DNA from: Actinomycetales bacterium
GTDB taxonomy: Bacteria; Actinomycetota; Actinomycetes; JAJZTN01
NCBI GenBank assembly: GCA_051960855.1
Contig: JBQCDV010000207.1
Span: 146-64,145 of the forward strand
DNA: 64,000 nt
Reading direction: 5' to 3'
The notes under the pieces are model-generated. The model was not told the origin of the DNA, did not search any database, and saw nothing but the letters and a program-made list of their open reading frames with translations. Positions 885-20,847 of the stretch are shown here, in pieces; within the stretch, counting starts at the first letter, position 1; every line of letters begins with the position of its first letter. A program made the translations under genes and the position numbers.

Positions 885-2525
885 GTGAAGGTCCTCGGCA
901 TCAACTCGCTGTTCCACGACCCGTCGGCTGCCCTCGTCATCGACGGAGTGACGGTCGCGGCGGCGGAAGAGGAGCGCTTCTCCCGTCGCAAGCACGGCCA
1001 CCGTCCCGTCCCCTTCGCGGCGTGGGAGCTGCCGGAGCTCGCCGCCCGCTGGTGCCTCGAGAGCGCCGGCCTCGCTCCGTCCGATCTCGACGTCGTCGCC
1101 TACTCCTACGATCCCTCGCTCGCGGTGGCAGCGGACGACCTCGGCCTCAACGACCCCTGGGACTGGCTGCGGCAGCTGTACGCCGAGCGGGCGGCCGGGT
1201 TCCTCGCCTCGGCCCTGCCCGGCCTCGACCCAGCCCAGGTACGCCACGTGCCCCACCACGTCGCCCATGCCGCGAGCGCCGGCCTGGCCGGCCTCGGTGG
1301 CGACGGAGCGGTCCTCGTGCTGGACGGCCGCGGCGAGCAGGCGAGCTCCTTGCTGGGGCACTACCGCGACGGCAAGCTCGACGTGCTGGCCACACAGCCT
1401 CTCCCCCACAGTGTCGGCTTCCTGTTCGAGGACCTCACCGAGCACCTCGGCTTCCTGCGCTCCAGCGACGAGTACAAGGTGATGGCCCTCGCCAGCCACG
1501 GCACGCCGCGCTTCCTCGACCTCTTCCGTGAGCGCCTCACGACCGACGGCTCCGGCGGCTTCCGCGTCAACCGACTGCATGGCTCAGACCTCGGCGAGCT
1601 CGTGCCGGCACGCCACCCGGACGAGCCATGGCAGCAGGCCCACGCCGACCTCGCGGCCAGCGCCCAGCGCCGGCTGGAGGAGCTGCTGCTCGAGCTGGGC
1701 GGGTGGCTGCACGAGCAGACCGGCGCCCTCCGGGTAGGGCTCGCCGGCGGCGTCGCCCTCAACTGCGTCGCCAACTCGGTGCTCGCCACTCGCGGCCCCT
1801 TCGAGCAGGTCTGGGTGCAACCGGCCGCCGGCGATGCTGGCACTGCGCTCGGCGCGGCCCTCAGCGTCGTCGCTGAGCACGGCCAGCCGGTGCAGCCCTT
1901 CACCGGAGCCGACCTCGGTCGCAGTTGGGACGACGGAGCGCTCGAGACGGAGCTTCGGCGCAGCGGCCTCGCGTGGCAGCGTCCACGGGACATCGCCGAG
2001 GCGTGTGCCGAGGTCCTAGCCGCCGACGGCATCGTGGCCTGGTACCAGGGACGCTCCGAGTTCGGCCCGCGCGCGCTGGGACACCGCAGCCTGCTGGCCC
2101 ATCCGGGACCCGCCGTGAACCTCGACCGCCTCAACGACATCAAGGGACGTGAGTCCTTCCGCCCCGTGGCGCCGATGGTGCTGGAGGAGCGGGCGGGCGA
2201 CATCTTCAGCGGGCCGCTTCCCAGCCCCTACATGCTCTTCGTGCACGACGTCGCGCCGGAGTGGCGCGACCGTGTAGCCGCTGTCGTCCATGTCGACGGC
2301 ACTGCCCGTGTGCAGACAGTCGGAGCCTCGGAACCCTTGCTACGCAAGCTTCTCGGCGCGTTCGAGACTCGGACCGGACTTCCAGTCCTCGTCAACACCA
2401 GCCTCAACACGGCGGGACGTCCCATGGTCGACTCACCGCAGGACGCTCTCGAGTGCTTCGGTTCTGCCCCGATCGACGCCCTCGCCCTCGGTCCCTTCCT
2501 CGTGCGCAAGGCGGCGGTGGCATGA
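885..2525 (+). CDS. Carbamoyltransferase, NodU/CmcH family
   Basis: The N-terminus (MKVLGINSLFHDPSAALV...) and the protein as a whole fit NodU/CmcH O-carbamoyltransferases. The stop overlaps the next gene's ATG (ATGA at 2522-2525). Confidence 0.8.
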   Translation: MKVLGINSLFHDPSAALVIDGVTVAAAEEERFSRRKHGHRPVPFAAWELPELAARWCLESAGLAPSDLDVVAYSYDPSLAVAADDLGLNDPWDWLRQLYAERAAGFLASALPGLDPAQVRHVPHHVAHAASAGLAGLGGDGAVLVLDGRGEQASSLLGHYRDGKLDVLATQPLPHSVGFLFEDLTEHLGFLRSSDEYKVMALASHGTPRFLDLFRERLTTDGSGGFRVNRLHGSDLGELVPARHPDEPWQQAHADLAASAQRRLEELLLELGGWLHEQTGALRVGLAGGVALNCVANSVLATRGPFEQVWVQPAAGDAGTALGAALSVVAEHGQPVQPFTGADLGRSWDDGALETELRRSGLAWQRPRDIAEACAEVLAADGIVAWYQGRSEFGPRALGHRSLLAHPGPAVNLDRLNDIKGRESFRPVAPMVLEERAGDIFSGPLPSPYMLFVHDVAPEWRDRVAAVVHVDGTARVQTVGASEPLLRKLLGAFETRTGLPVLVNTSLNTAGRPMVDSPQDALECFGSAPIDALALGPFLVRKAAVA

Positions 2526-4054
2526 CGAACGCCGCTGCGTCCCTCACCTACGTCGTCGTCATTCCCGCGACGCGCCCCCCGCTCGTCACTCGTGTGCTCG
2601 CATCCCTGACGGCGCAGGGAGTTCCGGCCTCGCAGGTGGTCGTGGTCGATGACAGCGCGGACGCGTCGGTGGGCGCCGCGCTGGCGCGGAGCGAGGTCAA
2701 CGTCGTTCGAGGGCCTCGGCGCGGACCTGCGGCCGCCCGGAACACGGGGTGGCGGGAGGCGACGAAGGCGGGGCGGGTTGACTGGGTCGTCTTCCTCGAC
2801 GACGACGTCATCCCTTCCCCGCGCTGGGCCACGGAGCTGGTAGCGGACCTCGCCGACGCTGCCGGGGATGTTGCGGGGATCACTGCTCGCCTTAGCGTCC
2901 CACTGACGACAAGCCGGCCTAACGACTGGGAGCGGCAGACGCAGGCCCTCGAGACGGCTTCGTGGATCACCGCTGATATGGCCTACCGGGTCGAGGTGCT
3001 TCTGGCGACGGGCGGCTTCGACGAGCGATTCCCGCGTGCCTTCCGAGAGGACAGCGACCTCGCCCTGCGCGTGCTCGCGGCCGGTTGGCGCGTCACGCAG
3101 GGTCGCCGGGAGACCGCTCACCCGGTCCGGCCCGCCCCCTGGCACGTGAGCCTGTCGCGTCAGGCCGGAAACGCCGACAACGCCCTGATGCGTCGCCTGC
3201 ATGGCCGGGACTGGCGGTCGCTCTCCGACAACCCATCCAGTCCGCTCCCCGCGTACGGCCTCACGATCGCCGCTCTGGCTGTCGGTGCAGCCGGCGCAGC
3301 CACGGCCGCTGCCTCCCCTGACCGCCGCAGGCTGGCGGGCACCGTTGCTGCGCTGGGGCTGGCGTGGTGGCTGCAGCGCACCGCCGGCTTCGCCTGGCGG
3401 CGGATCGCTCCCGGCCCTCGCACCGCAACCGATATCGCCGCCATGGCTGTCACCAGCGCGCTGATCCCGCCGCTGGCGCTCTGGCACCGGCTGCGCGGTG
3501 AGCTGCGACACCGCCACGTCCAGCCCGCGCTGCCCCCCGTGCGCGCCGTGCTCTTCGACAAGGACGGCACGCTCGTCCATGACGTCCCCTACAACGGCGA
3601 CCCGGAGCTGGTGCAGCCGGTGGCGGATGCCCACCGGAGCGTCCAGCGGCTGCGCGAGGCAGGACTGCGACTCGGCTTGGTTTCCAACCAGTCCGGCATC
3701 GCCCGGGGCCTGCTCGACCGCTCCCAGGTGGAGGCCGTGCTGGCCCGCACCGCCGAGCTCGTCGGACCCTTCGACACGGTGCACATCTGCCCCCACGACG
3801 ACTCCGCCGGCTGCGCGTGCCGTAAGCCGAAGCCGGGGATGGTGCTCGACGCTGCGCGGGCGCTGGGAGTGCCACCGCAGCAGTGCGTGGTCGTCGGCGA
3901 CATCGGCGCCGATGTCGGAGCGGCACTGGCTGCCGGGGCACGTGCGGTGCTCGTGCCGACCGCTGCTACCCGTCGCGAGGAGAGGCAGTCCGCCCCCCAC
4001 CGTGCGGACACCCTCACCGAGGCTGTCGACCTCATCCTGGGAGGTCGGGTATGA
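2522..4054 (+). CDS. gmhB: Bifunctional GT2 glycosyltransferase / D-glycero-D-manno-heptose 1,7-bisphosphate phosphatase (GmhB-like HAD-IIIA) fusion
   Basis: The N-terminal half is GT2-like (VVVIPATRP...VVVVDDSADA, DxD in VVFLDDDV). It is followed by hydrophobic helices. The C-terminal half has the HAD motif FDKDGTLV and the GmhB zinc motif CPHDDSAGCACRKP. The start ATG (MTNAAAS) overlaps the previous stop. Confidence 0.75.
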   Translation: MTNAAASLTYVVVIPATRPPLVTRVLASLTAQGVPASQVVVVDDSADASVGAALARSEVNVVRGPRRGPAAARNTGWREATKAGRVDWVVFLDDDVIPSPRWATELVADLADAAGDVAGITARLSVPLTTSRPNDWERQTQALETASWITADMAYRVEVLLATGGFDERFPRAFREDSDLALRVLAAGWRVTQGRRETAHPVRPAPWHVSLSRQAGNADNALMRRLHGRDWRSLSDNPSSPLPAYGLTIAALAVGAAGAATAAASPDRRRLAGTVAALGLAWWLQRTAGFAWRRIAPGPRTATDIAAMAVTSALIPPLALWHRLRGELRHRHVQPALPPVRAVLFDKDGTLVHDVPYNGDPELVQPVADAHRSVQRLREAGLRLGLVSNQSGIARGLLDRSQVEAVLARTAELVGPFDTVHICPHDDSAGCACRKPKPGMVLDAARALGVPPQQCVVVGDIGADVGAALAAGARAVLVPTAATRREERQSAPHRADTLTEAVDLILGGRV

Positions 4055-5202
4055 GCCGGCCACCCTCGACCCACTCCTCGAGCCGACCCCATGTCCTCGT
4101 AGTCCGGCTCGACAGCGCCGGCGACGTGCTGCTCACGGGTCCGGCGATCCGTGCCGTCGCGGCGGGCGCCCGCCGGGTGACCGCCCTCGTCGGTCCGGGT
4201 GGCGCGGCTGCGGCGGCCCTCCTTCCGGGCGTCGACGAGACCGTGGTCTGGGAGTGCCCCTGGATCGTGGGAGACCCGGAGGCGGTCGCCCCCGACGACA
4301 TCGGCGACATCGTGAGCCGGCTGTCGGTCCTCGACTGCGACGAAGCCGTCATCTTCACGTCCTTCCACCAGTCGCCACTGCCGACCGCGCTCGTGCTGCG
4401 GCTGGCCGGCGTCCCGCGGATCAGCGCGACGAGCGTCGACTACCCCGGCTCCCTGCTCGACGTACGACACCGCCCGCAGCCCACCGACGGACCGCACGAG
4501 GTGGAGTTCTGCCTGTCGACGGCGCGCGCCGCCGGCTTCGAGCTCCCGAACGACGATGCTGGCCTGCTCGCCGTCCGCGGGCCGCTGCCCGACGTGACTC
4601 ACCTGCTCGCCGACCCGAGCGGGACCGACGCTCCTCGCGTCGCCCTCCACGTCGGCGCCAGCGTCCCGGCACGCAGCCCCGAACCGGCCTCCCTCGCGCA
4701 GGCGGCGACGCTGCTGGCCGGCCGCGGCTGGGACGTCGTGGTCACGGGCGGCCCTGCCGAGATCGCACTGGCCGCCGAGGTCGCCGGGGAGGCAGCCCGG
4801 TCGCTCGCGGGCCGCACGAGCCTCGGCGAGCTGGCCGCCGTCCTGGCGCAGTCAGATGTCGTCGTGTCGGGCAACACGGGGCCCGCGCACCTGGCCGCAG
4901 CCGTCGGGACACCGGTGGTGTCGCTGTTCGCCCCCGTCGTGCCCCTCGAACGGTGGCGCCCGTGGGGCGTCCCGACCGTCGTTCTCGGCGACCTCCACGC
5001 GTCGTGCCGCGACACCCGGTCCCGGGTCTGCCCGATACCCGGCCACCCCTGTCTGTCCGGCGTCAGCGGCAGCCAGATCGCAGCGGCGGTCGAGTCGCTG
5101 CTCTCCCCGTCCTCGCTCGGCGACGCGTCGTCAGCGTCCTCAGGGTCGTCCCCCACCACCGCGGTCCCGGCGACCGCGCCATCCATGGAAGGAGCACGGT
5201 GA
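4051..5202 (+). CDS. Glycosyltransferase family 9 (ADP-heptose:acceptor heptosyltransferase-like)
   Basis: GT9 hallmarks are present: HVLVVRLDSAGDVLLTGPAIRAV near the N-terminus and SGNTGPAHLAAAVGTPVVSLF near the C-terminus. ATGA overlap at 4051-4054. Confidence 0.75.
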   Translation: MSRPPSTHSSSRPHVLVVRLDSAGDVLLTGPAIRAVAAGARRVTALVGPGGAAAAALLPGVDETVVWECPWIVGDPEAVAPDDIGDIVSRLSVLDCDEAVIFTSFHQSPLPTALVLRLAGVPRISATSVDYPGSLLDVRHRPQPTDGPHEVEFCLSTARAAGFELPNDDAGLLAVRGPLPDVTHLLADPSGTDAPRVALHVGASVPARSPEPASLAQAATLLAGRGWDVVVTGGPAEIALAAEVAGEAARSLAGRTSLGELAAVLAQSDVVVSGNTGPAHLAAAVGTPVVSLFAPVVPLERWRPWGVPTVVLGDLHASCRDTRSRVCPIPGHPCLSGVSGSQIAAAVESLLSPSSLGDASSASSGSSPTTAVPATAPSMEGAR

Positions 5203-6161
5203 GGATCCTCGTCTGGCACGTCCACGGCTCATGGACGACCGCCTTCGTCTCCGGGTCGCACACGTACCTGCTGCCGACCCTGCCCGAGCGCGGCGCCTGG
5301 GGCGGTGGGCGGTCCACCTCCTGGGACTGGCCGGCCTCCGCGGTCGAGGTCCCCGCCGACCAGCTGGCGACGACCGACGTGGACGTCGTGATCCTGCAGC
5401 GGCCGGAGGAGCTCGAGCTCGCGGAGCGCTGGCTGGGACGCCGGCTGGGCCGTGAGATCCCCGCGGTCTACGTCGAGCACAACACCCCCAAGGGCGACGT
5501 CCCCTCGACCCGACACCCGCTGGCGGACCGGTCCGACATCCCGATCGCGCACGTGACGTGGTTCAACGCCGCGATGTGGGACAACGGCCGCGCTCCCGTC
5601 ACCGTCATCGAGCACGGGATCCCCGATCCGGGCGCGCGCTGGACCGGCAACGACGTTCGGGTCGCCTGCTCCATCAACGAGCCCATCCGACGCACCCGCG
5701 TCGCAGGCACCGACCTGCTGCCGCGGTTTGCCGAGATCGCTCCGGTGGACGTGTACGGCATCGGCACGGCCGGCCTCGGCGAGCACCTCGGGCTGCCGCC
5801 GGACCGGCTCGGAGAGTTCGACGTCCAGCAGGACGAGCTCTACCGGCAGCTGGCCGAGCACCGTGTCTACCTGCACCCGTACCGGTGGACCAGCCTGGGG
5901 CTCTCCCTGCTGGAGGCGATGCACCTGGGCATGCCGGTGGTCGTGCTCGGCACGACGGAGGCCTACGAAGCGGTGCCGCCCGAGGCCGGCGTCTGCACCA
6001 CGAAGGTGCCGGACCTGCTGGATGCAGTCCGCACCTACTGCAAGGACCACGACGCCGCGCGGGACGCGGGTCGTGCCGCCCGAGAGGCGGTGCTGCGCCG
6101 CTACGGCCTGGCCCGCTTCCTCTCCGACTGGGACCGACTACTCCTGGAGGTGACCCGATGA
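5199..6161 (+). CDS. Glycosyltransferase (GT4/GT1-like)
   Basis: A GTG start overlaps the upstream stop (GTGA at 5199-5202). The C-terminal half resembles retaining GT-B glycosyltransferases (EAMHLGMPVVV...). Confidence 0.6.
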   Translation: MRILVWHVHGSWTTAFVSGSHTYLLPTLPERGAWGGGRSTSWDWPASAVEVPADQLATTDVDVVILQRPEELELAERWLGRRLGREIPAVYVEHNTPKGDVPSTRHPLADRSDIPIAHVTWFNAAMWDNGRAPVTVIEHGIPDPGARWTGNDVRVACSINEPIRRTRVAGTDLLPRFAEIAPVDVYGIGTAGLGEHLGLPPDRLGEFDVQQDELYRQLAEHRVYLHPYRWTSLGLSLLEAMHLGMPVVVLGTTEAYEAVPPEAGVCTTKVPDLLDAVRTYCKDHDAARDAGRAAREAVLRRYGLARFLSDWDRLLLEVTR

Positions 6162-7402
6162 GGATCGCGATGGTGTCAGAGCACGCCAGCCCGCTAGCTG
6201 TGCTGGGCGGCGTGGACGCCGGCGGCCAGAACGTCCACGTGGCCGACCTGTCACGCGCCCTCGCCCGCGCGGGTCACGAGGTGACGGTGTACACGCGCCG
6301 CGACGATGAGGCGTTGGCCGACAAGGTCAAGCTGTGCAAGGGCGTCACCGTCGAGCACGTGACCGCGGGACCGGCGGCCGCGCTGCCGAAGGACGAGCTG
6401 CTGCCCTACATGGACGAGTTCGGCGACGAGCTCGCGCGCCGCTGGTCGAAGAAGGCGCCGGACCTGGTGCACACCCACTTCTGGATGTCGGGGCTGGCCG
6501 GCCTGCGGGCACGGGAGCACACCGGCGTCCCGGTCGTGCACACCTATCACGCGCTGGGCCTGACCAAGCGTCGGCACCAAGGCGCCGCGGACACCAGTCC
6601 CGTCGAGCGTGTGGACCTGGAGGCACACCTCGCGCGGTCGGTTGACCACATCGTGGCGACCGCCACCGAGGAGGCCTTCGAGCTGCGGCGGATGGGCGCC
6701 CGGCGCGACCAGATCACGATCGTGCCGTGCGGCGTCGACGTCGAGAGGTTCACACCGCACGGTCCCGTCGCGCCCCGCGGCAGCAGTCCGCGCATCCTGT
6801 CACTCGGGCGTCTGGTCGAGCGCAAAGGCGTCGACATGATCATCACCGCACTGCGGATGGTGCCCGACGCCGAGCTGGTGATCGCCGGTGGCCCCGACCA
6901 GCACGAGCTGGACCACGACGCGGACGCCCAACGTCTGATGGCCGCTGCGGCCGCTGCCGGTGTCGCCGGGCGCGTGCACCTGGTGGGCCGGGTCAGCCGA
7001 GAGGAGGCGCCGGCGCTGATCCGCTCCGCCGACGTCGTCGTCTGCGTGCCCTGGTACGAGCCCTTCGGCATCGTCCCGCTCGAGGCCATGGCCTGCGCCC
7101 GCCCCGTCGTCGCGGCGGCCGTGGGCGGTCTCGCGGACACGGTGGTCAACGGTGTGACCGGCGTCCTCGTCCCCCCCAAGCGACCGCAGGAGCTCGCGAT
7201 GGTGCTCCGGCGCCTGCTCGCCGACGACATGGAGCGCGAGGGGATGGGTCAGGCGGGGCTCGACCGCGTGCTCGCCCGCTACTCGTGGGAGCGCGTGGCC
7301 CACGAGACCGAGGCCGTCTACCAGGGCCTCGGCCTGGCCGAACGACGCCTCACCGCGACGGTCGACCTGCGGGAGGCCGTTCCGGCTGGGGCCGCCCGAT
7401 GA
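6158..7402 (+). CDS. Glycosyltransferase family 4 (MshA-like GT-B)
   Basis: GT4 sequence features are present: MRIAMVSEHASPL...GGQNVHVADLSRALARAGHEVTVYT and a C-terminal EPFGIVPLEAMACARPVVAAAVGGLADTV. The start ATG overlaps the previous stop. Confidence 0.8.
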   Translation: MRIAMVSEHASPLAVLGGVDAGGQNVHVADLSRALARAGHEVTVYTRRDDEALADKVKLCKGVTVEHVTAGPAAALPKDELLPYMDEFGDELARRWSKKAPDLVHTHFWMSGLAGLRAREHTGVPVVHTYHALGLTKRRHQGAADTSPVERVDLEAHLARSVDHIVATATEEAFELRRMGARRDQITIVPCGVDVERFTPHGPVAPRGSSPRILSLGRLVERKGVDMIITALRMVPDAELVIAGGPDQHELDHDADAQRLMAAAAAAGVAGRVHLVGRVSREEAPALIRSADVVVCVPWYEPFGIVPLEAMACARPVVAAAVGGLADTVVNGVTGVLVPPKRPQELAMVLRRLLADDMEREGMGQAGLDRVLARYSWERVAHETEAVYQGLGLAERRLTATVDLREAVPAGAAR

Positions 7403-8106
7403 GCCGGCACCCGCGCGGCGTGCGGGCCGGCGGCTGCGGTGACGGCGGCGAAGGCCCCCCGCGGGCGTTCGCGCGCCCCGGCCAGCACGCTCGTGATCTG
7501 GCCGCGGTGCTGGAGCGCTCGGCGTCTCAGCTCGACCTGCTCGCCGCTCGCGGCGCCGTGCTGGCCGCCCGGCTGCGCGATGGCGCCCGGCTCATCGCCG
7601 CCGGCAACGGCGGCAGTGCGGCGGAGGCCCAGCACCTCACCGCCGAGCTGGTGGGCCGGCTGCGCGACGACCGCGCCCCGATGTCCGCGATCGCGCTGTG
7701 CGCGGAGACCTCCAGCCTCACCGCGATCGTCAACGACTACGGCTCCGATGCGATGTTCGCCCGGCAGGTCCTGGCCCACGGGCGACCCGGCGACGTCGTC
7801 CTGCTGCTCTCGACGTCCGGCTCCAGCAGCAACCTGCTGTCGGCCGCCGACGCCGCGAAGAGCGCCGGCATCGAGGTGTGGTCCTTCACCGGACCGGACC
7901 CCAACCCGCTGGCCGCCATGTCCGACTGGTCGCTGTGCATCGACGCCCCCGACTCGGCCACCATCCAGGAGGTTCATCTCGTCGCGGTGCACGCGCTGTG
8001 CGCCGCGGTCGACGTCGAGCTCGGCGTGGCACCGTGGGCCGGTGAGGCAGCCGCAACCCCGCAGGTCGTCGACCTGCGCGAGCCGGCCTCCGAGGTCGCC
8101 CGGTGA
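7399..8106 (+). CDS. gmhA: D-sedoheptulose-7-phosphate isomerase GmhA (SIS domain)
   Basis: SIS/GmhA motifs are present: IAAGNGGSAAEAQHLTAELVGR, DVVLLLSTSGSSSNLL. ATGA overlap with the previous gene. Confidence 0.75.
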   Translation: MSRHPRGVRAGGCGDGGEGPPRAFARPGQHARDLAAVLERSASQLDLLAARGAVLAARLRDGARLIAAGNGGSAAEAQHLTAELVGRLRDDRAPMSAIALCAETSSLTAIVNDYGSDAMFARQVLAHGRPGDVVLLLSTSGSSSNLLSAADAAKSAGIEVWSFTGPDPNPLAAMSDWSLCIDAPDSATIQEVHLVAVHALCAAVDVELGVAPWAGEAAATPQVVDLREPASEVAR

Positions 8107-9770
8107 CCCGCCCGACGACCGGGCCGGCGACCGGCCCCGCGGCGCACCCTGTCCGCGTCCTCGTCGTCGGGGATGCCCTCATCGACGCCGACGTGGAGGG
8201 CGCCAGCTCCCGGCTCTGCCCCGACGCTCCGGTGCCCGTCGTCGATGTCGCCCGCACCCGACGCCGTCCGGGAGGGGCAGCGCTCGCGGCGCTGCTGGCC
8301 GCGTTCGGCACCCAGGGGGGCCAGCCGGCGCAGCCGGCGCAGGGGGCACAGGAGCCGCCGGGCGACAGCCGCTTCGGTTCTCCCGCCGTCGAGGTCGCCC
8401 TCGCGTCGCCGGTGCCGGAGGCCGATCGTGAGGACCTCGCGGCCCTGCTGGGCAACCGGGTGCGGCTCGTTCCACTCGGCGCTGCGGGGCGCCTCCCGCG
8501 CAAGACGCGCATCCGGGTGAGCGGTCAGTCGCTGCTCCGGCTGGACGACGGTGTCCTCGAGACTCCCGACGACCTCAGCGCCGACGACTCGGACCGCCTG
8601 ACCGCAGAGCTGGCCGAGGCCGACGCCGTTCTGGTGTCGGACTATGGGCTGGGGGCGACGTCGCTGCCCGCCCTGCGCAAGGCCCTGTCCACGGCTGCCG
8701 CCGGACGCCCGGTCGTCTGGGACCCGCATCCCCGCGGGAGCCGCCCCACGCGGGGGACGACCGTCGTCACGCCGAACCTCAGCGAAGGACACGGCCTCGA
8801 CCCGGAGGCGAAACCGGTGCCTCAGGGACTGCCGGAGGCGAGCGCACTGGCTGCCCGGCTCCATCAGCACCTGGGCGCCGCCGTCGCCTTGACCCTCGGC
8901 TCCCGCGGAGCGCTGCTCTCGCAACCCGATGGCGGCGCCCCCCTGGTGGCGCCCTGTCCGCCGGTGAGCGGTGCCGACACCTGCGGGGCGGGCGACGCCT
9001 TCGCCTCCGCTGTCGCGGTGGCGCTGGCACAGGGCGATGAGCTTCCCGAGGCCGTCCTGAGAGCCGTGCGGCGCGCCGCGTCCTTCGTCGCCGACGGCGC
9101 AGCCGCACGCATCGGCGTGGTGACGACACCTGCGCAGCCACATCCGGACGGCGAGGCGCCGGCTGCGCCGCGGCCAGCCGAGTCCTCGACCGGTGCCGTC
9201 CCACGACTGGGGTCGCTCGAGGCTGCTGCGCCGGTCCTCGAACGCGCCCGCGTCGACGGCCGGACCATCGTGGCCGCCGGTGGCTGCTTCGACCTGCTGC
9301 ACGCCGGGCATGTCGAACTGCTGGAGGCAGCCGCGGCTCTCGGCGACGTACTCGTCGTCTGCGTCAACTCCGACAGCTCCGTGCGGCGCCTGAAGGGCCC
9401 GCAGCGGCCCGTGACGCCACAGGAGGACCGCGTCCGGCTGCTGATGGCCCTCGACTGCGTCGACGCCGTCGTCCTCTTCGACGAGGACACCCCCGAGGCC
9501 GTGCTCGCGCAGGTGCGCCCGCACCTGTGGGCCAAGGGCGCGGACTACACCGGCCGCCATCTGCCAGAGGCAGACGTCCTGGCCCAGTGGGGCGGAGAGG
9601 TCGTCCTCCTGCCGGTACTGCCCGGCCGCAGCACCACCCGGCTCATCGCTGCCGCGCGCACCGAACGACAGAGCGAGCAGACATTGGACCTGACCGACCC
9701 CGGCTCCCGGCCGGGCGGTCAGACATTGGACAGCAATTCCACAACCGAGAGGAACATTCATGTCGGCTGA
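8103..9770 (+). CDS. hldE: Bifunctional D-beta-D-heptose 7-phosphate kinase / D-beta-D-heptose 1-phosphate adenylyltransferase HldE (RfaE)
   Basis: The N-terminal half is ribokinase-like (VLVVGDALID...CGAGDAF). The C-terminal half is cytidylyltransferase-like (AGGCFDLLHAGHVELLEAAAALGD...VNSDSSVRRLKGPQRP). GTGA overlap at 8103-8106. Confidence 0.85.
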   Translation: MTRPTTGPATGPAAHPVRVLVVGDALIDADVEGASSRLCPDAPVPVVDVARTRRRPGGAALAALLAAFGTQGGQPAQPAQGAQEPPGDSRFGSPAVEVALASPVPEADREDLAALLGNRVRLVPLGAAGRLPRKTRIRVSGQSLLRLDDGVLETPDDLSADDSDRLTAELAEADAVLVSDYGLGATSLPALRKALSTAAAGRPVVWDPHPRGSRPTRGTTVVTPNLSEGHGLDPEAKPVPQGLPEASALAARLHQHLGAAVALTLGSRGALLSQPDGGAPLVAPCPPVSGADTCGAGDAFASAVAVALAQGDELPEAVLRAVRRAASFVADGAAARIGVVTTPAQPHPDGEAPAAPRPAESSTGAVPRLGSLEAAAPVLERARVDGRTIVAAGGCFDLLHAGHVELLEAAAALGDVLVVCVNSDSSVRRLKGPQRPVTPQEDRVRLLMALDCVDAVVLFDEDTPEAVLAQVRPHLWAKGADYTGRHLPEADVLAQWGGEVVLLPVLPGRSTTRLIAAARTERQSEQTLDLTDPGSRPGGQTLDSNSTTERNIHVG

Positions 9771-10449
9771 CACCCGCACCGTGCTCGTGACAGGCGGGTC
9801 CTCGGGCCTGGGAGCAGCGGTCGTCGACGCGCTCCTGCAGCGTGGCGACCGCCCCTGCGTGATCGACATCAACCCCCCGAAGGCCGACGTCCCCTTCCGG
9901 CAGGTCGACCTGTCGGACACCCGCGCGGCCGAGGCCGCGGTGGAGGAGCTCGCCGACGAGCTCGGCGGCCTGAACGGCGTTGTCGCCGCGGCGGGCGTCG
10001 ACACGCCCGGCAAGCTCGACGAGGTGCCCGCGAAGGAGTGGGAGCGGATCGTCACCATCGACCTGCTCGCGGTGGCGGCCGTGTCGCGGGCGGCCCTGCC
10101 GCACCTGAAGCAGAGCAGCGGCCGGCTGGTCACGGTGGCTTCCACGCTCGGCGTGAAGGCGGTCAGCGACGCCACCGCCTACTGCGCCGCCAAGTTCGGC
10201 GTGGTCGGATTCACCCGCGCGCTCGCAGCGGAGACCGCCGGTGAGATCGGCGTCACGCTGCTCATCCCCGGCGGCATGAGCACCGCCTTCTTCGACGGGC
10301 GGACCGAGCAGTACAAGCCCGGCCCGGATGCGAAGCTGAACGACCCCTCACACGTCGCCGCGGCGATCCTCTTCGCCCTCGACCAGCCCGCCGGGTGCGA
10401 GCTGCGCGAGATGGTCGTGGCAGCGGCCACCGAGCCCTCGTGGCCGTGA
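9760..10449 (+). CDS. SDR family oxidoreductase
   Basis: Rossmann motif TGGSSGLGAAV and catalytic YCAAK are present. The gene overlaps the hldE 3' end by 11 nt. Confidence 0.75.
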   Translation: MSADTRTVLVTGGSSGLGAAVVDALLQRGDRPCVIDINPPKADVPFRQVDLSDTRAAEAAVEELADELGGLNGVVAAAGVDTPGKLDEVPAKEWERIVTIDLLAVAAVSRAALPHLKQSSGRLVTVASTLGVKAVSDATAYCAAKFGVVGFTRALAAETAGEIGVTLLIPGGMSTAFFDGRTEQYKPGPDAKLNDPSHVAAAILFALDQPAGCELREMVVAAATEPSWP

Positions 10450-10456
10450 GTCGCTC

Positions 10457-11452
10457 GTGACCGAGGCTGCGCGCCGCCCGCTGCCCACCCAGACGGGTGC
10501 GGCAGCGGGCGGCCCTCCGCCGGGGCCGAGCACCGTGCTGGTGCTGCGCGCGCTCGGCATGGGTGACCTGCTCACGGGTGTCCCCGCGCTGCGCGCCGTG
10601 CGCGCCCACTACCCGCGCGCTCGCCTGCTGCTCGCCGCCCCGACGTGGCTGGCACCGCTCGTGCGCCTGGTGGGCTGCGTCGACGAGATCGTTCCGCACG
10701 ACGGGGTCGCAGCCCTGCCCTGGCCGTGGGACCCGCCGGAGGTAGCGGTGAACCTCCACGGCCGGGGGCCGCAGAGCCACCGGCTCCTGCAGGCGGTGCG
10801 CGCCGGCCGGATGCTGGCCTTCGCCAGTCCGGACGCGGACTTCACGGACGGCCCGCAGTGGCTGCCCGATGAGCACGAGGTCGAGCGCTGGTGCCGCATG
10901 CTGGCCGCGTACGACATCGCCAGCGACCCCGACGACCTGCTCATTCAGCGGCCTGGGGCCGCCCCCGACCAGCGCGGCGTCGTCGTCATCCATCCCGGTG
11001 CCAGCGTCGCGTCGCGACGGTGGTCGGCGGCCAGGTTCGGTGTGGTGGCTGCAGATCTGGCCGCCCGCGGACATCGCGTCGTTGTGACGGGAAGTCCGGC
11101 GGAGGAGGCGCTGGCGCGCCAGGTGGTGACAGCGGCGAAGCTGCCCCGGGCCGCCCTGCTCGCCGGCCGGCTCAGCCTCCTGCAACTGGCCTCCGTCGTC
11201 AGTGGCGCAGCCCTCGTCATCTCCTCCGACACCGGCATCGCCCACCTTGCCACCGCACTGCGGACCCCGTCGGTCACCGTCTTCGGGCCGGTCCCGCCGT
11301 CGCAGTGGGGAGCACGCATCGACACCGCGATCCATCGAGCGCTGTGGGTGCCGGACGCCGACGGGGTCGGCCAGCTCGCCCGCGTGCAGCCCAGCTACGT
11401 CGTTCGGGAAGCTCTCGCTCTGCTGCGCAGCCGTCGCCTGGCGACGCGGTAA
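10457..11452 (+). CDS. Glycosyltransferase family 9 (heptosyltransferase-like), paralogue 2
   Basis: GT9 motifs are present: VLVLRALGMGDLLTGVPALRAV and a C-terminal SSDTGIAHLATALRTPSVTVFGP. A GTG start is assumed. Confidence 0.75.
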   Translation: MTEAARRPLPTQTGAAAGGPPPGPSTVLVLRALGMGDLLTGVPALRAVRAHYPRARLLLAAPTWLAPLVRLVGCVDEIVPHDGVAALPWPWDPPEVAVNLHGRGPQSHRLLQAVRAGRMLAFASPDADFTDGPQWLPDEHEVERWCRMLAAYDIASDPDDLLIQRPGAAPDQRGVVVIHPGASVASRRWSAARFGVVAADLAARGHRVVVTGSPAEEALARQVVTAAKLPRAALLAGRLSLLQLASVVSGAALVISSDTGIAHLATALRTPSVTVFGPVPPSQWGARIDTAIHRALWVPDADGVGQLARVQPSYVVREALALLRSRRLATR

Positions 11453-11458
11453 CGGGCG

Positions 11459-12438
<980 letters not shown>

Positions 12439-12442
<4 letters not shown>

Positions 12443-13920
12443 GAGCGGCTCGGGAGCGGCTCGAGGTGGACCACCTTGGTCCGCGACAGCTCGTCGAGCA
12501 GCTCGGGCCCGTAGCCGAAGCCGCGTCCGCTCGCGCCGCGCGGGTGGGCGGCGCCGCCGGGGGCTCCCCCGAAGACGGCGTTGATCTTGACGGTACCGAC
12601 GGGCAGGTCCCGCCACGCCTGCTGCGCGTGAGCGAGGTCCGGGGTCAGCACGGTCGCCGCCAGGCCGTAGGGGCTGTCGGCGGCCACCTCCAGCGCCTCG
12701 TCGAAGGAGTCGACGACGAGGACCGGAGCCACGGGCCCGAAGTTCTCCTCGCGCCAGATCCGCATGTCGGGCCGGACGTCGGCGAGCACAGTGGGCGGGT
12801 AGAACGAACCGTCGCCCTCGGGGACCTCGCCGCCGCAGACCACGCGGGCGCCGGCCTCGACGGCCTCGCGGACCTGCGCGTGCACCTCGTCGCGGTGGCG
12901 CCGGTCGACGAGCGGTCCCATGAACGCGCCCTCGTCGTGCTGGGCGCCGACCGTGACGGCCCGGGCGCGCTGCTCGAGGGCGTCGAGGAAGGCGTCGGCG
13001 ACGTCGCGCAGCACGACCACGCGCTCGACGCCGGTGCAGAGCTGCCCGGCGTTGATGAAGCCGCCGAGGACGACCTGATCGGCGGCCCAGCCGGCGTCGA
13101 CGCCGCTGTGCACGACGAGGGCGTCCGCGCCGCCGTTTTCGACGATGCAGTGCGCGCCCGTCTGCGCGGTCGCCGCGGCGATGGCGCGCCCGGCGCGCGT
13201 GGAGCCGACGTGGGCGACCGCGCGGACGCGAGAGTCGGCGACCAGTGCGGCGCCGGTCTCACCCGCGCCGAAGACGCAGGTGAAGACGCCGTCCGGCAGC
13301 TCCTCGGCGAAGACCTCGGCGAGCAGCGCCGCCGACCACGGGGAGCGCTCAGAGGGCTTGAAGACGACGGTGTTGCCCATGACGAGGGCGGCGGCGAGCA
13401 GGCCGGCGGGGACCGCGACCGGGTCGTTCCACGGGGTGATGACGGCGACGACCCCGTGCGGCTCGAGCACCATCAGGTCGGTCGCGTCCCAGTTGCCATT
13501 GAGGCTGCGACCGCGGTGCACCGGACCCAGCTCGGAGTACTGCCGGATGGTGGAGATCCCGGCCCGGACGCCGTCGAGCGACATTCCGACGGGACGCCCC
13601 ATCTCCGCCGAGGCGGCCTCGGCGAGCCGGTCGGCGCGCTCCTCGAGCCGGTCGGCGATGCGCGCCAGGGTCGCTCCCCGGGCTCCGGCCGGCGTCTGCG
13701 CCCAGCTCCGCCGGGCGGCCTCAGCCGCATCTACTGCGGCGGTCACCGTGGCGTGCGACCCGACCGGGAAGTCCACGACGGGGACCCCGGTCGCGGGGTC
13801 GACGACGGTCAGCACCGGCTCGTCCGAGGCCGGGACCCCGAGGTGGCTCAGGTGGACGGTGACCTCGGACCGGGAGGACCCGGCGGTCGGGACGGCAGTG
13901 GGCTCGGACAGATCGAGCAC
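12439..13920 (-). CDS. Aldehyde dehydrogenase family protein
   Basis: ALDH fold features are present, including the catalytic Cys context GQLCTGVERVVV and a glycine-rich cofactor region. The protein is about 490 aa. Confidence 0.8.
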
Positions 13921-14026
13921 GAACGACTCCTCGTCGGTGGGCGGCTGACGCAGCGCTTCTTCACGTTTACGTCCGCCTCCTGCCCCGAAGTGCCCGCCTC
14001 AACCGGGTCAGCCCCGCAAATCCCCC

Positions 14027-14908
14027 TTACCGTGCCAGGGCGTCGGCCACCTCCGGTGAGCCGTAGAGGTCGCCTACCTCGGCGAGCGCGTCGAGCCCCA
14101 GCACGTCGTACGCCTCGGCACGGCGGTCCCGCACCGTCGTCGGCGCCTCCTGGTGGAAGGCCAAGCTCGGCAGGATCCCCGCGCCCCCGCGCTGCTCCAT
14201 CACGGCCAGTTGGGCCACGACGTCCTCGCCGCAGTGCACGGGCGGCAGCTGGGGCCAGAAGCCGAACGCCCCGGCCTCCAACAGCGCCTGCCGGTCGTAC
14301 AGGACGCAGCCTCCGACCCAGGCCACCCGGTAGGCCACGTACCCGTCGGCTCCGTCGGGCGAGAGCGCGAGCCGCTGCGCCAGGTGCAGGGGGTTCGCCG
14401 CATTGTGCAGCCGCCAACGCTGCCAGGCCGGCGTCGAGCGCCGGACCCGCTCGGGTCGTACCCGGTCCTCCCAGGGCTCGAAGTCCGCCAGCTCCTCCGG
14501 CCGCACGTCGTCTCGGTAGCTCAAGCCGACGACGGGCATGCCGACGAAGCCGCAACCGAGCTCGACCAGTGCCTGCCGCATCAGCCCGAGCGCAGCGGGT
14601 GCGAGCAAGACGTCGTCGTCGAGCAGCAGCAACTCGCGGCGGGACGTCGCCTCCACCAGGTGCTGCCGCTGCTCGGCGAGGCCGCGGCGCGGCAGGTGCC
14701 GGTGCAGGTCGACCGCCACACCGAGGTGCTCCAGCAGCCGAAGGGCGGCCACCACGGCCGGCTCCGCTGCTGCCGGCGACTCGCCCTGGTCGCTGACCAC
14801 GACCCGCGCGGGCCGCACCCGCTGGCCGGCGAGGGACGTCAGCGTCGCCGCCAGGCAGGCGGGACGGTCGGCTGTGGGTATGGCGACCTCGAGGTCCGTC
14901 CGCGTCAC
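14027..14908 (-). CDS. Glycosyltransferase family 2
   Basis: GT2-like N-terminus (LEVAIPTADRPACLAATLTSLAGQ...VVVSDQGESP) and a DxD-like LLLLDDDV. The start overlaps the upstream hldE2 stop. Confidence 0.65.
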   Translation of the reverse strand: MTRTDLEVAIPTADRPACLAATLTSLAGQRVRPARVVVSDQGESPAAAEPAVVAALRLLEHLGVAVDLHRHLPRRGLAEQRQHLVEATSRRELLLLDDDVLLAPAALGLMRQALVELGCGFVGMPVVGLSYRDDVRPEELADFEPWEDRVRPERVRRSTPAWQRWRLHNAANPLHLAQRLALSPDGADGYVAYRVAWVGGCVLYDRQALLEAGAFGFWPQLPPVHCGEDVVAQLAVMEQRGGAGILPSLAFHQEAPTTVRDRRAEAYDVLGLDALAEVGDLYGSPEVADALAR

Positions 14909-16425
14909 CGGCCACCCTCCGGGAGCTCACCGAGAGGCGCGCGCAGGTCGATCGTCACCGAGGCGTCCAACGGCCCGTCCAGGCTGCGGATCCGGTCCAG
15001 CAGCCTGGTCGTCGAGTGATCCGCGACGAAGTCGACGAAGCGCACCGCCCCGCCGTACGACTCGACGACGGGAGCCTCCGGCAGGGTCTCGGGTGTGTAG
15101 TCGCCGCCCTTGGCGTAGACGTCGGGCTGCAGTCTCGCGATCAGCTCCGCGGGGCTGTCTTCGTCGAAGACGACGAGGTGGTCGACGCATGACAGCGCGG
15201 CGAGCACGCGCAGCCGGTCGCCGAGCGGGTTGACCGGTCGGTCTGGCCCCTTGAGGCGGCGCACGCTCTCGTCGCTGTTGACCGCCACGACGAGCACGTC
15301 GCCGAGCCGACGGGCACCGTCCAGCATCGCGACGTGACCGGAGTGCAGGACGTCGAAGCAGCCGTTGGTGAAGACCACCCGCCTCCCAGCGGCCCGGTGC
15401 TCGGCCACCACATCGACGAGGACGTCCGGCGCCGCGACGGGCTCGAGGATGCCGATCTGCTCGAGCAGGGCCGACTGCGTGCAGGTGGCCGTCCCCGACT
15501 TGCGAACGACGACGCCCGCTGCCGCCACCGCCGCCTCCAGGGCGACGCTCGGGTCGGCCCCCTGGGCCAGGCTCAGGGTGAGCGCCGCGGTGAAGGAGTC
15601 ACCGGCACCGCAGGTGTCGGGATGGGACACCGGGTGGGCATACGCACGGTGAGGTCGCTGCTGGCGGGCGATGAAGACCGCTCCCTCGGAGTCGAGGGTG
15701 ACGGCGGCCGACCGCGCGCACCACTCGTCGAGCAGCGTCTCCCCGTGCTGGGACAACCATTGCGTGCGGTCGACGCCCTCGTCGGCCGGCAGCGTCAGCA
15801 CTGCCTCGTCCCAGTTCGGCGCCACCACGTCGGGGCACAGGTCACGCCACCGGCGCGGGTCGTGCGCGTCGAGGACCACCAGTGGACGACCCTCCCGAAC
15901 CAGCGCTCCAAGCCGGGGGCGCAGGTCGGCGTCGAGCAGCCCGGTGGCGTAGTCGCACACGACCAGGACCGGGACGCGACGGAGCAGCTCGCGTGCGGCG
16001 GCCAGCAGCTGGCCCACCGTCTCCTCGCTGGCCGCGCCGTCTCCCAGCCCCTCGTCGAAGCGGGCCAGCATCGTGCCATCGGCGACCAGCCGCTGTTTCG
16101 CGACCGTGTGTCGGCCGGCTTCGACGATGACACCGCTGACGTCGACCCCGGCCTCCGCGCAGCGCCGCACCAGACGCTCGCCGTCCGCGTCGTCACCGAC
16201 GACGCTGACGAGGTGCACGCGCGCGCCCAGGGCGGCGAGGTTCGCGGCGGCGTTCGCTGCTCCCCCGGGCTCCTCGCGGCGTCGCTTCACGGTCAGGGCC
16301 GGCACGGGTGCCTCGCGGCACAAGCGTGTCGCGGAGCCCTCCAGCCAGGTGTCCAACATCGCGTCGCCGAGCACGACGACCTCGGTGCCACTGAAGCGGG
16401 CGACGACATCCGTCAGGCTGTCCAC
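14905..16425 (-). CDS. hldE: Bifunctional heptose 7-phosphate kinase / heptose 1-phosphate adenylyltransferase HldE, second paralogue
   Basis: Same two-domain architecture as the 8103-9770 gene (VVVLGDAMLD...CGAGDSF, TNGCFDVLHSGHVAMLDGARRLGD...VNSDESVRRLKGPDRP). Confidence 0.85.
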   Translation of the reverse strand: MDSLTDVVARFSGTEVVVLGDAMLDTWLEGSATRLCREAPVPALTVKRRREEPGGAANAAANLAALGARVHLVSVVGDDADGERLVRRCAEAGVDVSGVIVEAGRHTVAKQRLVADGTMLARFDEGLGDGAASEETVGQLLAAARELLRRVPVLVVCDYATGLLDADLRPRLGALVREGRPLVVLDAHDPRRWRDLCPDVVAPNWDEAVLTLPADEGVDRTQWLSQHGETLLDEWCARSAAVTLDSEGAVFIARQQRPHRAYAHPVSHPDTCGAGDSFTAALTLSLAQGADPSVALEAAVAAAGVVVRKSGTATCTQSALLEQIGILEPVAAPDVLVDVVAEHRAAGRRVVFTNGCFDVLHSGHVAMLDGARRLGDVLVVAVNSDESVRRLKGPDRPVNPLGDRLRVLAALSCVDHLVVFDEDSPAELIARLQPDVYAKGGDYTPETLPEAPVVESYGGAVRFVDFVADHSTTRLLDRIRSLDGPLDASVTIDLRAPLGELPEGGR

Positions 16426-17615
16426 ACACGGTCCTCTCGAGGAAGTTCGTCGCGGGAGGCGGCCCCGCGGGCAAGATGGGCGAGGGTGGCCTCGACGACC
16501 TCACCGACCGGGACGTCGAGGCAGGCGGTGTCGCCGTAGGGGCAGCGGAACTGGTGGCACGGCGAGCACGAGGTCGGCACGCGCAGCAGGTTCGCGGGGA
16601 CGTCGCGCGGCGCCATGTGCTCGATGGGCTCGGTGCCACCCCAGGTGACGACGACCGGAGTGCCGAGCGCGTCGGCGACGTGGAGTCCGCCGGAGTTGTT
16701 GACGACGGCGACGTCGACCCGCGCGAGCAGCGCCACCCACGCGGGAATGGGCAGCCCGGCGAGGACGGCAGCGGCATCGCCCGCCACGTCGTCGAGCAGG
16801 GGCTGCTCCTTCGCCGACCCGACGACCACGACGCAGGCGTGCTCGGAGAGGGCGGCGACCGATCGCCGGAACCGCTCGGGAGCCCAGCGTCTGGCTGGGG
16901 CGCTTGCGCCGGGTGCCACCGCGACCGTCGTTGCGCCGAGGGTGACACCGCGAGAGCGCAGTTCCCGCTCGAGCTGCACCTGCGCCTGCCCGGGCACCGC
17001 CAGCTGCAGCTCGCGGCTCTCGCAGGGCACGCCGAGACTGGCGAGCAGGAACAGCTGCCGGTCCACCTGATGCGTCAGGTAGTCCGGCGGTGAGACCGGG
17101 TGGGTCAAGACGCCGCCGCCGAAGTCGCGGCTCAGCCCGGCACGCACCGGGATCTCGGCCAGCAGGCCCACCAGGGCAGGCGGCAGCGGCGACTGTGAGA
17201 ACGACGTCAGCACGACCATCGCGTCGTAGCGGCGGCCGGCCACCTCGGCCACGAGCGATTCGAACGACGCCCGCGCACGCTGCGCCGTTCGGGCCGGGTC
17301 CGCCTCCGCGGGGGATGCGTCCTGCCAGACCGGGGACGCGACGAGCAGGTCGTCGAGACCCGGCAGCAGCGGCGCGATCGCCGCGCCGGCGGGCGAGCAG
17401 AGCAGGTCGATCCGGGCGTGCGGCGCTGCGGCTCGCACCGCCCGGACCGCCGGGCCCGTCATGACGACGTCACCGAGGTTGTCCGCGCGCACCAGCAGGA
17501 TCGCGCCCATGCCCGCCCAGTCGCCGGCCGTGAGGACCGGTCCCTGGTCGACCGCCGGGTGACGGCGGGGACGGGGCCGCCGGAGCAGGTCCGGGGCAGG
17601 AGGCGCTGGTGTCAC
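16413..17615 (-). CDS. Glycosyltransferase family 9 (heptosyltransferase-like), paralogue 3
   Basis: GT9 motifs are present (ILLVRADNLGDVVMTGPAVRAV, NNSGGLHVADALGTPVVV). The start could be GTG at 17615 or the internal ATG at 17510. Confidence 0.7.
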   Translation of the reverse strand: MTPAPPAPDLLRRPRPRRHPAVDQGPVLTAGDWAGMGAILLVRADNLGDVVMTGPAVRAVRAAAPHARIDLLCSPAGAAIAPLLPGLDDLLVASPVWQDASPAEADPARTAQRARASFESLVAEVAGRRYDAMVVLTSFSQSPLPPALVGLLAEIPVRAGLSRDFGGGVLTHPVSPPDYLTHQVDRQLFLLASLGVPCESRELQLAVPGQAQVQLERELRSRGVTLGATTVAVAPGASAPARRWAPERFRRSVAALSEHACVVVVGSAKEQPLLDDVAGDAAAVLAGLPIPAWVALLARVDVAVVNNSGGLHVADALGTPVVVTWGGTEPIEHMAPRDVPANLLRVPTSCSPCHQFRCPYGDTACLDVPVGEVVEATLAHLARGAASRDELPREDRVWTA

Positions 17616-20726: not shown

Positions 20727-20847
20727 GCGCGCGCACTCCTGTCAGCGGCCGACCTGTCACCGTCCACCCGACAACTTACCGATCAAGCGTTCGGTTCCCC
20801 CTGCCCGCCGCGGGTGGTCCAGCGCGCCCCGACCCGCAGGCAGCAGG

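Follow-up and report, generated by a model that had tools for sequence, protein, structure and literature searches.

The 64,000-nucleotide stretch of an Actinomycetales genome analyzed here (contig JBQCDV010000207.1, called the window below) contains an open reading frame (ORF) encoding a protein of 510 aa, in which a GT2 glycosyltransferase domain is followed by a module of three helices and then by a HAD-IIIA phosphatase domain of the GmhB type. The protein is probably a two-enzyme component of an actinobacterial heptose-glycan operon of the cwg type, in which the HAD domain would act as GmhB and the GT2 domain as a separate transferase. The fused gene, its parts and its catalytic motifs are as follows.

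2522..4054, + strand: the whole ORF, with GT2 domain, three-helix module and HAD-IIIA (GmhB-type) domain (from the ORF and its translation)
2546..3226, + strand: GT2 catalytic domain of GT-A fold, residues ~9-235 (PF00535, PF13641, Foldseek and profile matches)
2798..2806, + strand: DxD motif D93-D94-D95, encoded by GAC GAC GAC (from the sequence; invariant in homologs)
3047..3052, + strand: E176-D177 of the R-E-D-x-D motif (invariant; HMMER alignment to K4CP)
3245..3508, + strand: three long Ala-rich helices, residues 242-264, 266-295 and 302-329 (AlphaFold pLDDT, the per-residue confidence, 84-98)
3539..4000, + strand: HAD-IIIA phosphatase domain of GmhB type, residues 340-493 (TIGR01662, NF006506, PDB matches and Foldseek)
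3557..3571, + strand: HAD motif I, D346-K-D348-G-T350, nucleophile and general acid/base (from the sequence; D346, D348, G349 and T350 invariant)
3788..3820, + strand: zinc-binding cap C423-x-H425-(5 aa)-C431-x-C433 (from sequence and conservation)

Domains of the fused protein

The ORF is a single uninterrupted frame. Its ATG shares the tetranucleotide ATGA (2522-2525) with the TGA of the upstream carbamoyltransferase gene, and at 4051-4054 its TGA in turn overlaps the ATG that starts the downstream gene. The G+C content at third codon positions is 0.84, like that of the adjoining genes. An in-frame extension back to GTG at 2261 would overlap the carbamoyltransferase gene and is not favored, because homologs begin within about 20 residues of M1. 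An exact-sequence database look-up of the 510-aa protein returned no record; the closest database protein (P0001) is also 510 aa long, is 99% identical, and comes from an independent metagenome-assembled genome (MAG).

One genome per species was scanned for the fused gene using tblastn, which gave at least 442 confirmed loci; the detailed counts given here are for the best 80. Of these 80, 79 encode both domains in a single frame that is not interrupted by a stop codon. The two halves do occur as separate genes in Streptomycetaceae and Microbispora, but the idea that an assembly error or frameshift welded two such genes together here is effectively refuted by the uninterrupted ORF with its uniform coding statistics, the nearly identical protein in an independent assembly, the same continuous ORF in loci from different species, and the conserved sequence of the linker. 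The first-pass annotation of this DNA, which described one polypeptide joining a GT2 and a GmhB-type domain and stated that an indel joining two genes would refute that description, was thus right on this point.

The N-terminal domain is matched by PF00535 on residues 13-126 (60.1 bits, against a cutoff of 23.3) and by PF13641 on residues 11-192 (45.9 bits, against 27). Profile matches to the GT2 proteins K4CP, AvpGT, TarS and DPMS cover the first half of the domain. An AlphaFold2 model was built on 30 homologs, with a mean pLDDT of 91.3 and a predicted TM-score (pTM) of 0.83. The domain has a GT-A fold in this model, and Foldseek matches it to many GT2 structures with E values of 1e-7 to 1e-9. 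HMMER places the DxD motif on the corresponding motif of K4CP, AvpGT and TarS. It is invariant in a set of 30 fused homologs and in a mixed set of 27, and the same is true of R175-E176-D177-x-D179, which aligns to GGEDNE of the chondroitin polymerase K4CP, in a low-scoring HMMER segment. In inverting GT-A enzymes the general base is a conserved Asp at the xED position (PMC12595478), and D177 is the predicted catalytic base. Further invariant residues of the domain are D43/D44, T150-A151-D152 and Q214. Since all these motifs are invariant, the GT2 domain is catalytically complete as far as its motifs can indicate, which bears out the earlier description of an N-terminal GT2 domain with a DxD motif. 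The best-scoring named GT2 model in NCBIfam is the mycofactocin glycosyltransferase MftF (TIGR03965, residues 11-255), but at 75 bits the protein falls well short of the cutoff of 280 and is not a member of that family. There are no mycofactocin genes near the fusion gene.

The C-terminal domain is matched by Pfam HAD models on residues 343-499 and by the HAD-IIIA model TIGR01662 on residues 341-480 (107.4 bits, against a cutoff of 44.6), and the best-scoring NCBIfam model overall is that of GmhB, NF006506. All four HAD motifs are invariant (D346, D348, T350, N389, Q390, S391, R434, K435, D460 and D464). The zinc cap reads C423-P-H425-DDSAG-C431-A-C433, of which C423 is invariant and the remaining ligands are at least 90% conserved. 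The short CxH-5-CxC spacing is that of β-GmhB from β- and δ-proteobacteria and of HisB-N (PMC9798254); the cap is common to GmhB and HisB-N, and is therefore necessary but not sufficient for GmhB.

Among proteins of solved structure, phmmer finds GmhB first (3l8h, E = 1.2e-18, 70.4 bits; 4pnh, E = 1.8e-18, 69.8 bits), followed by E. coli GmhB (2gmw, E = 1.3e-13, 53.7 bits) and HisB-N (2fpr, E = 1.6e-7, 33.6 bits). The top five Foldseek matches of the domain are all GmhB, with TM-scores normalized by target length (TMt) of 0.77-0.82. Compared to GmhB of E. coli and Bordetella bronchiseptica (2gmw, 3l8e, 3l8h), the domain has the same HAD-IIIA fold (TMt about 0.8) with 29-31% identity, and shares the DxDxT, T/S-N-Q, R-K-P and GDxxxD motifs, together with the CxH...CxC zinc cap with five-residue spacing of the Bordetella type. 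Like GmhB, it is encoded beside gmhA, hldE and heptosyltransferase genes. It differs in that GmhB is a protein of about 180 aa, whereas here it forms the C-terminal domain of a 510-aa protein, in an organism that has no lipopolysaccharide (LPS). The first-pass annotation had recognized a GmhB-type HAD-IIIA phosphatase from its DKDGT motif and zinc site, and this holds: the motifs are present and GmhB proteins are the closest solved relatives.

A role as histidinol phosphatase, as in HisB-N, was considered and rejected, because there is no his context, the match to HisB is far weaker, and Actinobacteria are reported to use other enzymes for this step. The scores are 41.2 against 443 for HisB (NF003937) and 35.5 against 140 for hisB_Nterm (TIGR01261); TIGR01656, which does pass (101.5 against 84.15), is a domain-level model and not the HisB equivalog. 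The operon contains no his genes. A reference cited in PMC9798254 assigns histidinol-phosphate phosphatase activity in Actinobacteria to IMPase-like HisN enzymes.

The two domains are joined by the three helices. The first-pass annotation described this region as a membrane segment of two hydrophobic helices, which is not what the model shows: there are three, they are weakly hydrophobic, and their flanks are rich in arginine. Hydrophobicity was measured for the best 19-residue windows on the additive Hessa scale, on which a lower value means that membrane insertion is likelier. The three helices score +2.4, +6.6 and +7.2 kcal/mol, with ranges in the 30 homologs of +0.9 to +7.3, +4.5 to +10.8 and +5.3 to +12.8, respectively. 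As controls, the lowest windows of nine soluble proteins encoded in the same region score +3.3 to +8.2, and eight helices of an actinobacterial MFS transporter score -1.8 to +4.1. Uncharged runs are 14-33 residues long in the helices and 19-30 in the soluble neighbors. All four helix flanks are net positive, and therefore do not show the pattern expected for alternating sides of a membrane. Residues of the linker and helices that are invariant in homologs include R294, G298, P299, M308, T311, S312 and P316.

Stand-alone GT2 proteins of Streptomyces keep the three helices, and so the helices are part of the GT2 module. Stand-alone HAD orthologs begin 17-50 residues ahead of their DxD motif, and have neither a signal peptide nor a hydrophobic leader. 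This implies that the HAD domain is cytoplasmic, and therefore that the chain ahead of it crosses the membrane either twice or not at all, but not three times. Membrane association of the helices is possible, if unproven; a classical transmembrane anchor is not supported.

The best Foldseek match spanning both GT2 domain and helices (354 columns, E = 3.7e-9) is PcManGT, a GT2 mannosyltransferase from Pyrobaculum calidifontis (6yv7). As in the fusion protein, its GT-A domain is followed by three antiparallel helices, which are described as a transmembrane region (PMC10569066). The two proteins have 18% identity, and the root-mean-square deviation over the whole alignment is about 12 Å, which means that the two sets of helices are not superimposable as placed. 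PcManGT also differs in that the helices of the fusion protein are weakly hydrophobic, and are followed by a domain of cytoplasmic type.

Fused, split and relocated forms

The fused form is present in at least several hundred species, as is seen from the confirmed loci. The best 120 protein clusters all contain both domains; the 119 after the closest are 52-60% identical to the protein and 437-538 aa long, mostly about 490-540. About 70 of the 80 loci have their genes in the order carbamoyltransferase, fusion, GT9, small glycosyltransferase, GT4, gmhA, hldE. The 80 loci belong to Micrococcales, Geodermatophilales, Streptosporangiales, Pseudonocardiales, Mycobacteriales, Propionibacteriales, Kineosporiales and Jiangellales, and also to Acidimicrobiia, Thermoleophilia and Euzebyales, plus a few MAGs of other phyla. 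Thousands of database entries are fused proteins of this kind, under the names "HAD-IIIA family hydrolase" or "D,D-heptose 1,7-bisphosphate phosphatase", while no description of a GT2-GmhB fusion was found in the open-access full-text literature. The protein is therefore a further member of a known and widespread family, in which both the domains and the operon are of kinds already known, and the coupling is not unusual, contrary to what had first been thought.

The MAGs that carry the fused gene and its cluster outside these groups (L050, L065, L069 and L079) are labeled as Eremiobacterota, Methylomirabilota, Dormibacteria and Binatia. Horizontal transfer and mis-binning are both possible reasons.

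The single exception among the 80 loci is from Streptomyces. It has an in-frame stop, which leaves a gene of 342 aa for GT2 plus helices, then 6 nt, and then a HAD gene of 221 aa. A search with this GT2 protein listed 120 clusters, all of 329-437 aa and all with GT2 domains only; nearly all of those with a species name are Streptomycetaceae. Kitasatospora and S. violaceusniger (complete genome) have GT2 proteins of 356 and 347 aa and HAD proteins of 216 and 230 aa, respectively. The two genes overlap by 4-8 nt and the operon is otherwise identical. The stand-alone HAD proteins of Streptomyces keep all motifs and the zinc cap.

In Microbispora sp. (L086), the GT2 gene is alone in the operon, and a HAD gene of 195 aa lies on the minus strand together with the small glycosyltransferase gene (2561-4173), in a divergent unit just upstream. 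The N-terminus of this HAD protein, SHPHRHAHPPAAVLFDRDGT, remains similar to the linker sequence of fused homologs, suggesting that the separate genes arose by fission of a fused ancestor. Split homologs, which the first-pass annotation proposed to look for, are thus found both in Streptomycetaceae and in Microbispora.

Some clusters are truncated. In the Streptomyces althioticus type (L081 and L082), L081 has kept the epimerase, carbamoyltransferase, GT2, GT4, gmhA and hldE, and lacks HAD, GT9 and the small glycosyltransferase. Three further loci (L083, L087 from Nonomuraea, and L088) consist essentially of the carbamoyltransferase-GT2 pair only, with no HAD or heptose gene. These suggest that the carbamoyltransferase-GT2 pair is the most persistent functional unit.

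We also surveyed the GT2 module in its best 150 representatives at 50% identity. The fused form accounts for 38 of these and complete modules that lack HAD for 61; a further 47 are fragments, and the other four are complete with a longer tail that has no HAD match. Fitch parsimony on a neighbor-joining tree of the module (60 cluster representatives) gave at least 16 changes between fused and unfused states. This figure is not relied on, because short metagenomic contigs may truncate "stand-alone" representatives and some of the state calls are doubtful. The conclusions on split forms rest on the complete-genome cases only. Given that split and relocated forms exist, the covalent linkage between GT2 and HAD is dispensable.

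The operon and its relation to cwg

Seven genes between 885 and 9770, including the fusion gene, are joined by six consecutive overlaps of 4 nt. The operon continues after these seven with an SDR gene and a second GT9 gene. Its genes other than the fusion gene are:

885..2525, + strand: NodU/CmcH-type carbamoyltransferase, first gene of the operon (Carbam_trans_N, Carbam_trans_C; syntenic in 68 of the 80 loci)
4051..5202, + strand: GT9 heptosyltransferase (PF01075; syntenic in 77 of the 80 loci)
5199..6161, + strand: small GT-B-type glycosyltransferase, GTx (PF13524, PF00534)
6158..7402, + strand: GT4 glycosyltransferase, MshA-like (PF00534, PF13439; TIGR03449 at 247.7 bits, below its cutoff)
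7399..8106, + strand: GmhA, sedoheptulose-7-phosphate isomerase with SIS domain (domain and profile matches)
8103..9770, + strand: HldE, bifunctional heptose-7-phosphate kinase and heptose-1-phosphate adenylyltransferase (domain and profile matches)
9760..10449, + strand: short-chain dehydrogenase, SDR (domain match)
10457..11452, + strand: second GT9 heptosyltransferase (domain and profile matches)

The cwg operon of Streptomyces coelicolor (SCO6179-6190) is a target of sigma-E, and is predicted to make a cell wall glycan (PMC6767563). Its published annotations are transferases for SCO6180 and SCO6181, a "dehydratase" for SCO6182, a putative heptosyltransferase for SCO6183 (cwgE), a phosphoheptose isomerase for SCO6186 and a bifunctional synthase/transferase for SCO6187. 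The gene order is the same as in the fusion cluster. In Kitasatospora and S. violaceusniger the order is epimerase, carbamoyltransferase, GT2, HAD, GT9, glycosyltransferase, GT4, SIS, HldE, GT9. This streptomycete order fits the annotations of SCO6180-6188, and therefore by synteny the fusion corresponds to CwgC (SCO6181) plus CwgD (SCO6182); the correspondence rests on synteny with other Streptomycetaceae rather than on the S. coelicolor sequence itself. The simplest explanation for the "dehydratase" label of SCO6182 is that the protein resembles the HisB phosphatase/dehydratase. There are two differences. In the Streptomycetaceae the two halves are the separate, overlapping genes described above, whereas the window has one ORF, and the cwg operon of Streptomycetaceae begins with an epimerase, whereas that in the window begins at the carbamoyltransferase, with no epimerase at that position.

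A second set of heptose-type genes lies at 11459-17615 on the minus strand, convergent with the first:

16416-17615, - strand: GT9
14908-16500, - strand: second HldE-like kinase/nucleotidyltransferase, 35% identical to the first HldE
14027-14908, - strand: GT2
12439-13920, - strand: aldehyde dehydrogenase
11459-12616, - strand: NAD epimerase/dehydratase

The heptose region is directly adjoined by a gene for a UPF0182 family protein of 1011 aa (17709-20741, minus strand; 938 bits). Upstream of the operon, a sigma-E-like sequence AAC-N18-CGTC is present at 679-703, about 180 nt ahead of the first gene, where the sequence is locally richer in A+T. The plus strand of the window has 22 occurrences of the pattern, so that about 0.12 are expected by chance in this region, and the motif is weak evidence for a promoter.

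Probable functions of the two domains and the case against channeling

The domain identities, the catalytic motifs, the conservation of the fusion, the synteny and the split forms are direct observations, whereas the substrates of the two domains, what the helices do and why the domains are fused are inferred. The fusion gene shares its operon with gmhA, hldE and two GT9 genes, and this heptose context is the one conserved in about 70 of the 80 loci. The window as a whole contains gmhA, two HldE paralogs and three GT9 genes, and the HAD domain of the fusion protein is its single GmhB-like sequence; no second one was found within the 64 kb. Because the operon has GmhA, HldE and GT9 but no other GmhB, the HAD domain would act as the GmhB of the pathway. 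The adenylyltransferase domain of HldE would then make ADP-heptose for the GT9 heptosyltransferases of the operon. GT2 plus the three-helix module would be a separate inverting glycosyltransferase, which may add another sugar to the same glycoconjugate, and would be functionally closest to the upstream carbamoyltransferase.

Several observations weigh against this assignment. The HAD domain misses the GmhB equivalog cutoffs, with scores of 113.8 against 178 (NF006506), 68.1 against 149.6 (TIGR00213) and 43.2 against 250 (NF050049). The Streptomyces clusters of the L081 type contain gmhA and hldE but have no HAD nearby, so that these strains either obtain GmhB from another source or do not strictly depend on it. 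The Kineococcus-type fused homologs P0061 and P0115 have lost the zinc ligands, with FCPDGPDGPSARRKP in place of CPH...CxCRKP, although the HAD catalytic motifs are kept. We found no biochemical study of the cwg enzymes or their product in the open-access literature, and no assay of glycosyl transfer by the GT2 domain (donor or acceptor) in the literature searched.

The low scores have a simple explanation. GmhA and HldE from the same operon are likewise under their NCBIfam equivalog cutoffs (150.7 against 209.45 and 249.6 against 521), which argues that the low HAD score results from divergence of the lineage rather than from a different function. It appears that the whole actinobacterial pathway has diverged from the Gram-negative sequences used to train the models. 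We therefore assign GmhB function to the HAD domain with good, but not full, confidence. The same sub-threshold scores of GmhA, HldE and GmhB mean that automatic annotation tends to give generic names to these proteins in Actinomycetota.

It was originally suggested that the fusion channels substrate between its two domains at the membrane. The product of GmhB is heptose-1-phosphate, which is not a glycosyl donor. It is adenylylated by HldE to ADP-heptose, which is the donor for GT9. Adenylylation by HldE and transfer by GT9 therefore intervene, and the active sites joined in the fusion do not act on successive intermediates. Direct channeling between them is thus unlikely. The persistence of GT2 with the carbamoyltransferase in clusters that have no heptose genes, and the ability of HAD to move, agree with this, and the frequent split forms also speak against the suggestion.

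Set out in full, the same idea is a metabolon at the membrane, in which the helices span the membrane or dock to it, and GmhB is held beside the transferase, so that heptose intermediates pass directly to a membrane-bound assembly line. Such a metabolon is possible, but is required by no result here, and we consider it unlikely. In its favor are the three long and almost uncharged helices between the domains, and the fact that PcManGT, with its three-helix transmembrane region, is the best structural match of GT2 plus helices. The pTM of the model suggests one compact assembly, and the tight translational coupling of the operon is compatible with a multi-enzyme complex. However, the HldE and GT9 steps separate the product of GmhB from any glycosyl transfer, the helices score like soluble segments and all their flanks are net positive, and three full spans would place a zinc-cysteine phosphatase of cytoplasmic type outside the cell. 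The common occurrence of split and relocated forms also argues against it.

It is more doubtful still that the protein is a synthase-phosphatase couple, in which GT2 or a neighboring glycosyltransferase glycosylates a phosphorylated acceptor and the HAD domain, which would not then be GmhB, removes the phosphate. Fusions of glycosyltransferase and phosphatase are a known design, and parallels are trehalose-6-phosphate synthase/phosphatase, glucosyl-3-phosphoglycerate synthase/phosphatase, and MshA followed by its phosphatase. The Foldseek matches of the GT-A domain include GpgS (4dec, 5jt0, 7pdo), the GT4 of the operon is most like MshA and sucrose-phosphate synthase, which both have phosphorylated acceptors, and the HAD scores below the GmhB equivalog cutoffs would be in keeping with a different substrate. 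Against this, the HAD domain is in the zinc-capped GmhB/HisB-N subgroup and its best matches in both sequence and structure are GmhB, and the operon would be left without the GmhB that GmhA, HldE and GT9 need. Furthermore, GT2 occurs without HAD in L081, L083, L087 and L088, and the HAD of Microbispora sits with a different glycosyltransferase on the opposite strand.

A similarly improbable alternative is that the HAD domain is more than a housekeeping GmhB, and is anchored by the helices in a membrane-associated assembly complex, where it either dephosphorylates a phosphorylated glycoside or lipid-linked intermediate made by the fused GT2 or the MshA-like GT4, or else, as the only phosphatase common to both, gates flux into the two parallel HldE/GT9 heptosylation systems in the 17-kb region. 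If this were true, it would provide a handle for identifying a phylum-wide heptose glycoconjugate of Actinomycetota.

We therefore return to the preferred reading of GmhB joined to a separate transferase. The fusion is old, and probably gives fixed stoichiometry and co-localization to two steps of one pathway, rather than passing substrate straight from one active site to the other. It would be a "Rosetta stone" fusion, which ensures co-expression at a fixed ratio and perhaps co-localization in a complex. There are precedents both in the heptose pathway, namely HldE (kinase plus adenylyltransferase, in the same operon and pathway), and in the same phosphatase subgroup, namely HisB (HAD-IIIA phosphatase plus dehydratase); HisB-N is the sister group of β-GmhB (PMC9798254). 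The fused activities of HldE and HisB act in the same linear pathway, whereas here the partner glycosyltransferase would act on a different substrate.

The fused, split and relocated forms amount to a natural experiment, which indicates that GmhB activity belongs to the pathway but need not be tethered to GT2. Actinomycetota are Gram-positive and have no LPS. The main interest is in the cluster, which retains a complete ADP-heptose pathway and heptosyltransferases across the LPS-less Actinomycetota, and which in Streptomyces, as the cwg cluster, is induced by cell-envelope stress. The chemistry of the cwg-type glycoconjugate is a question about this cluster, and not about the fusion.

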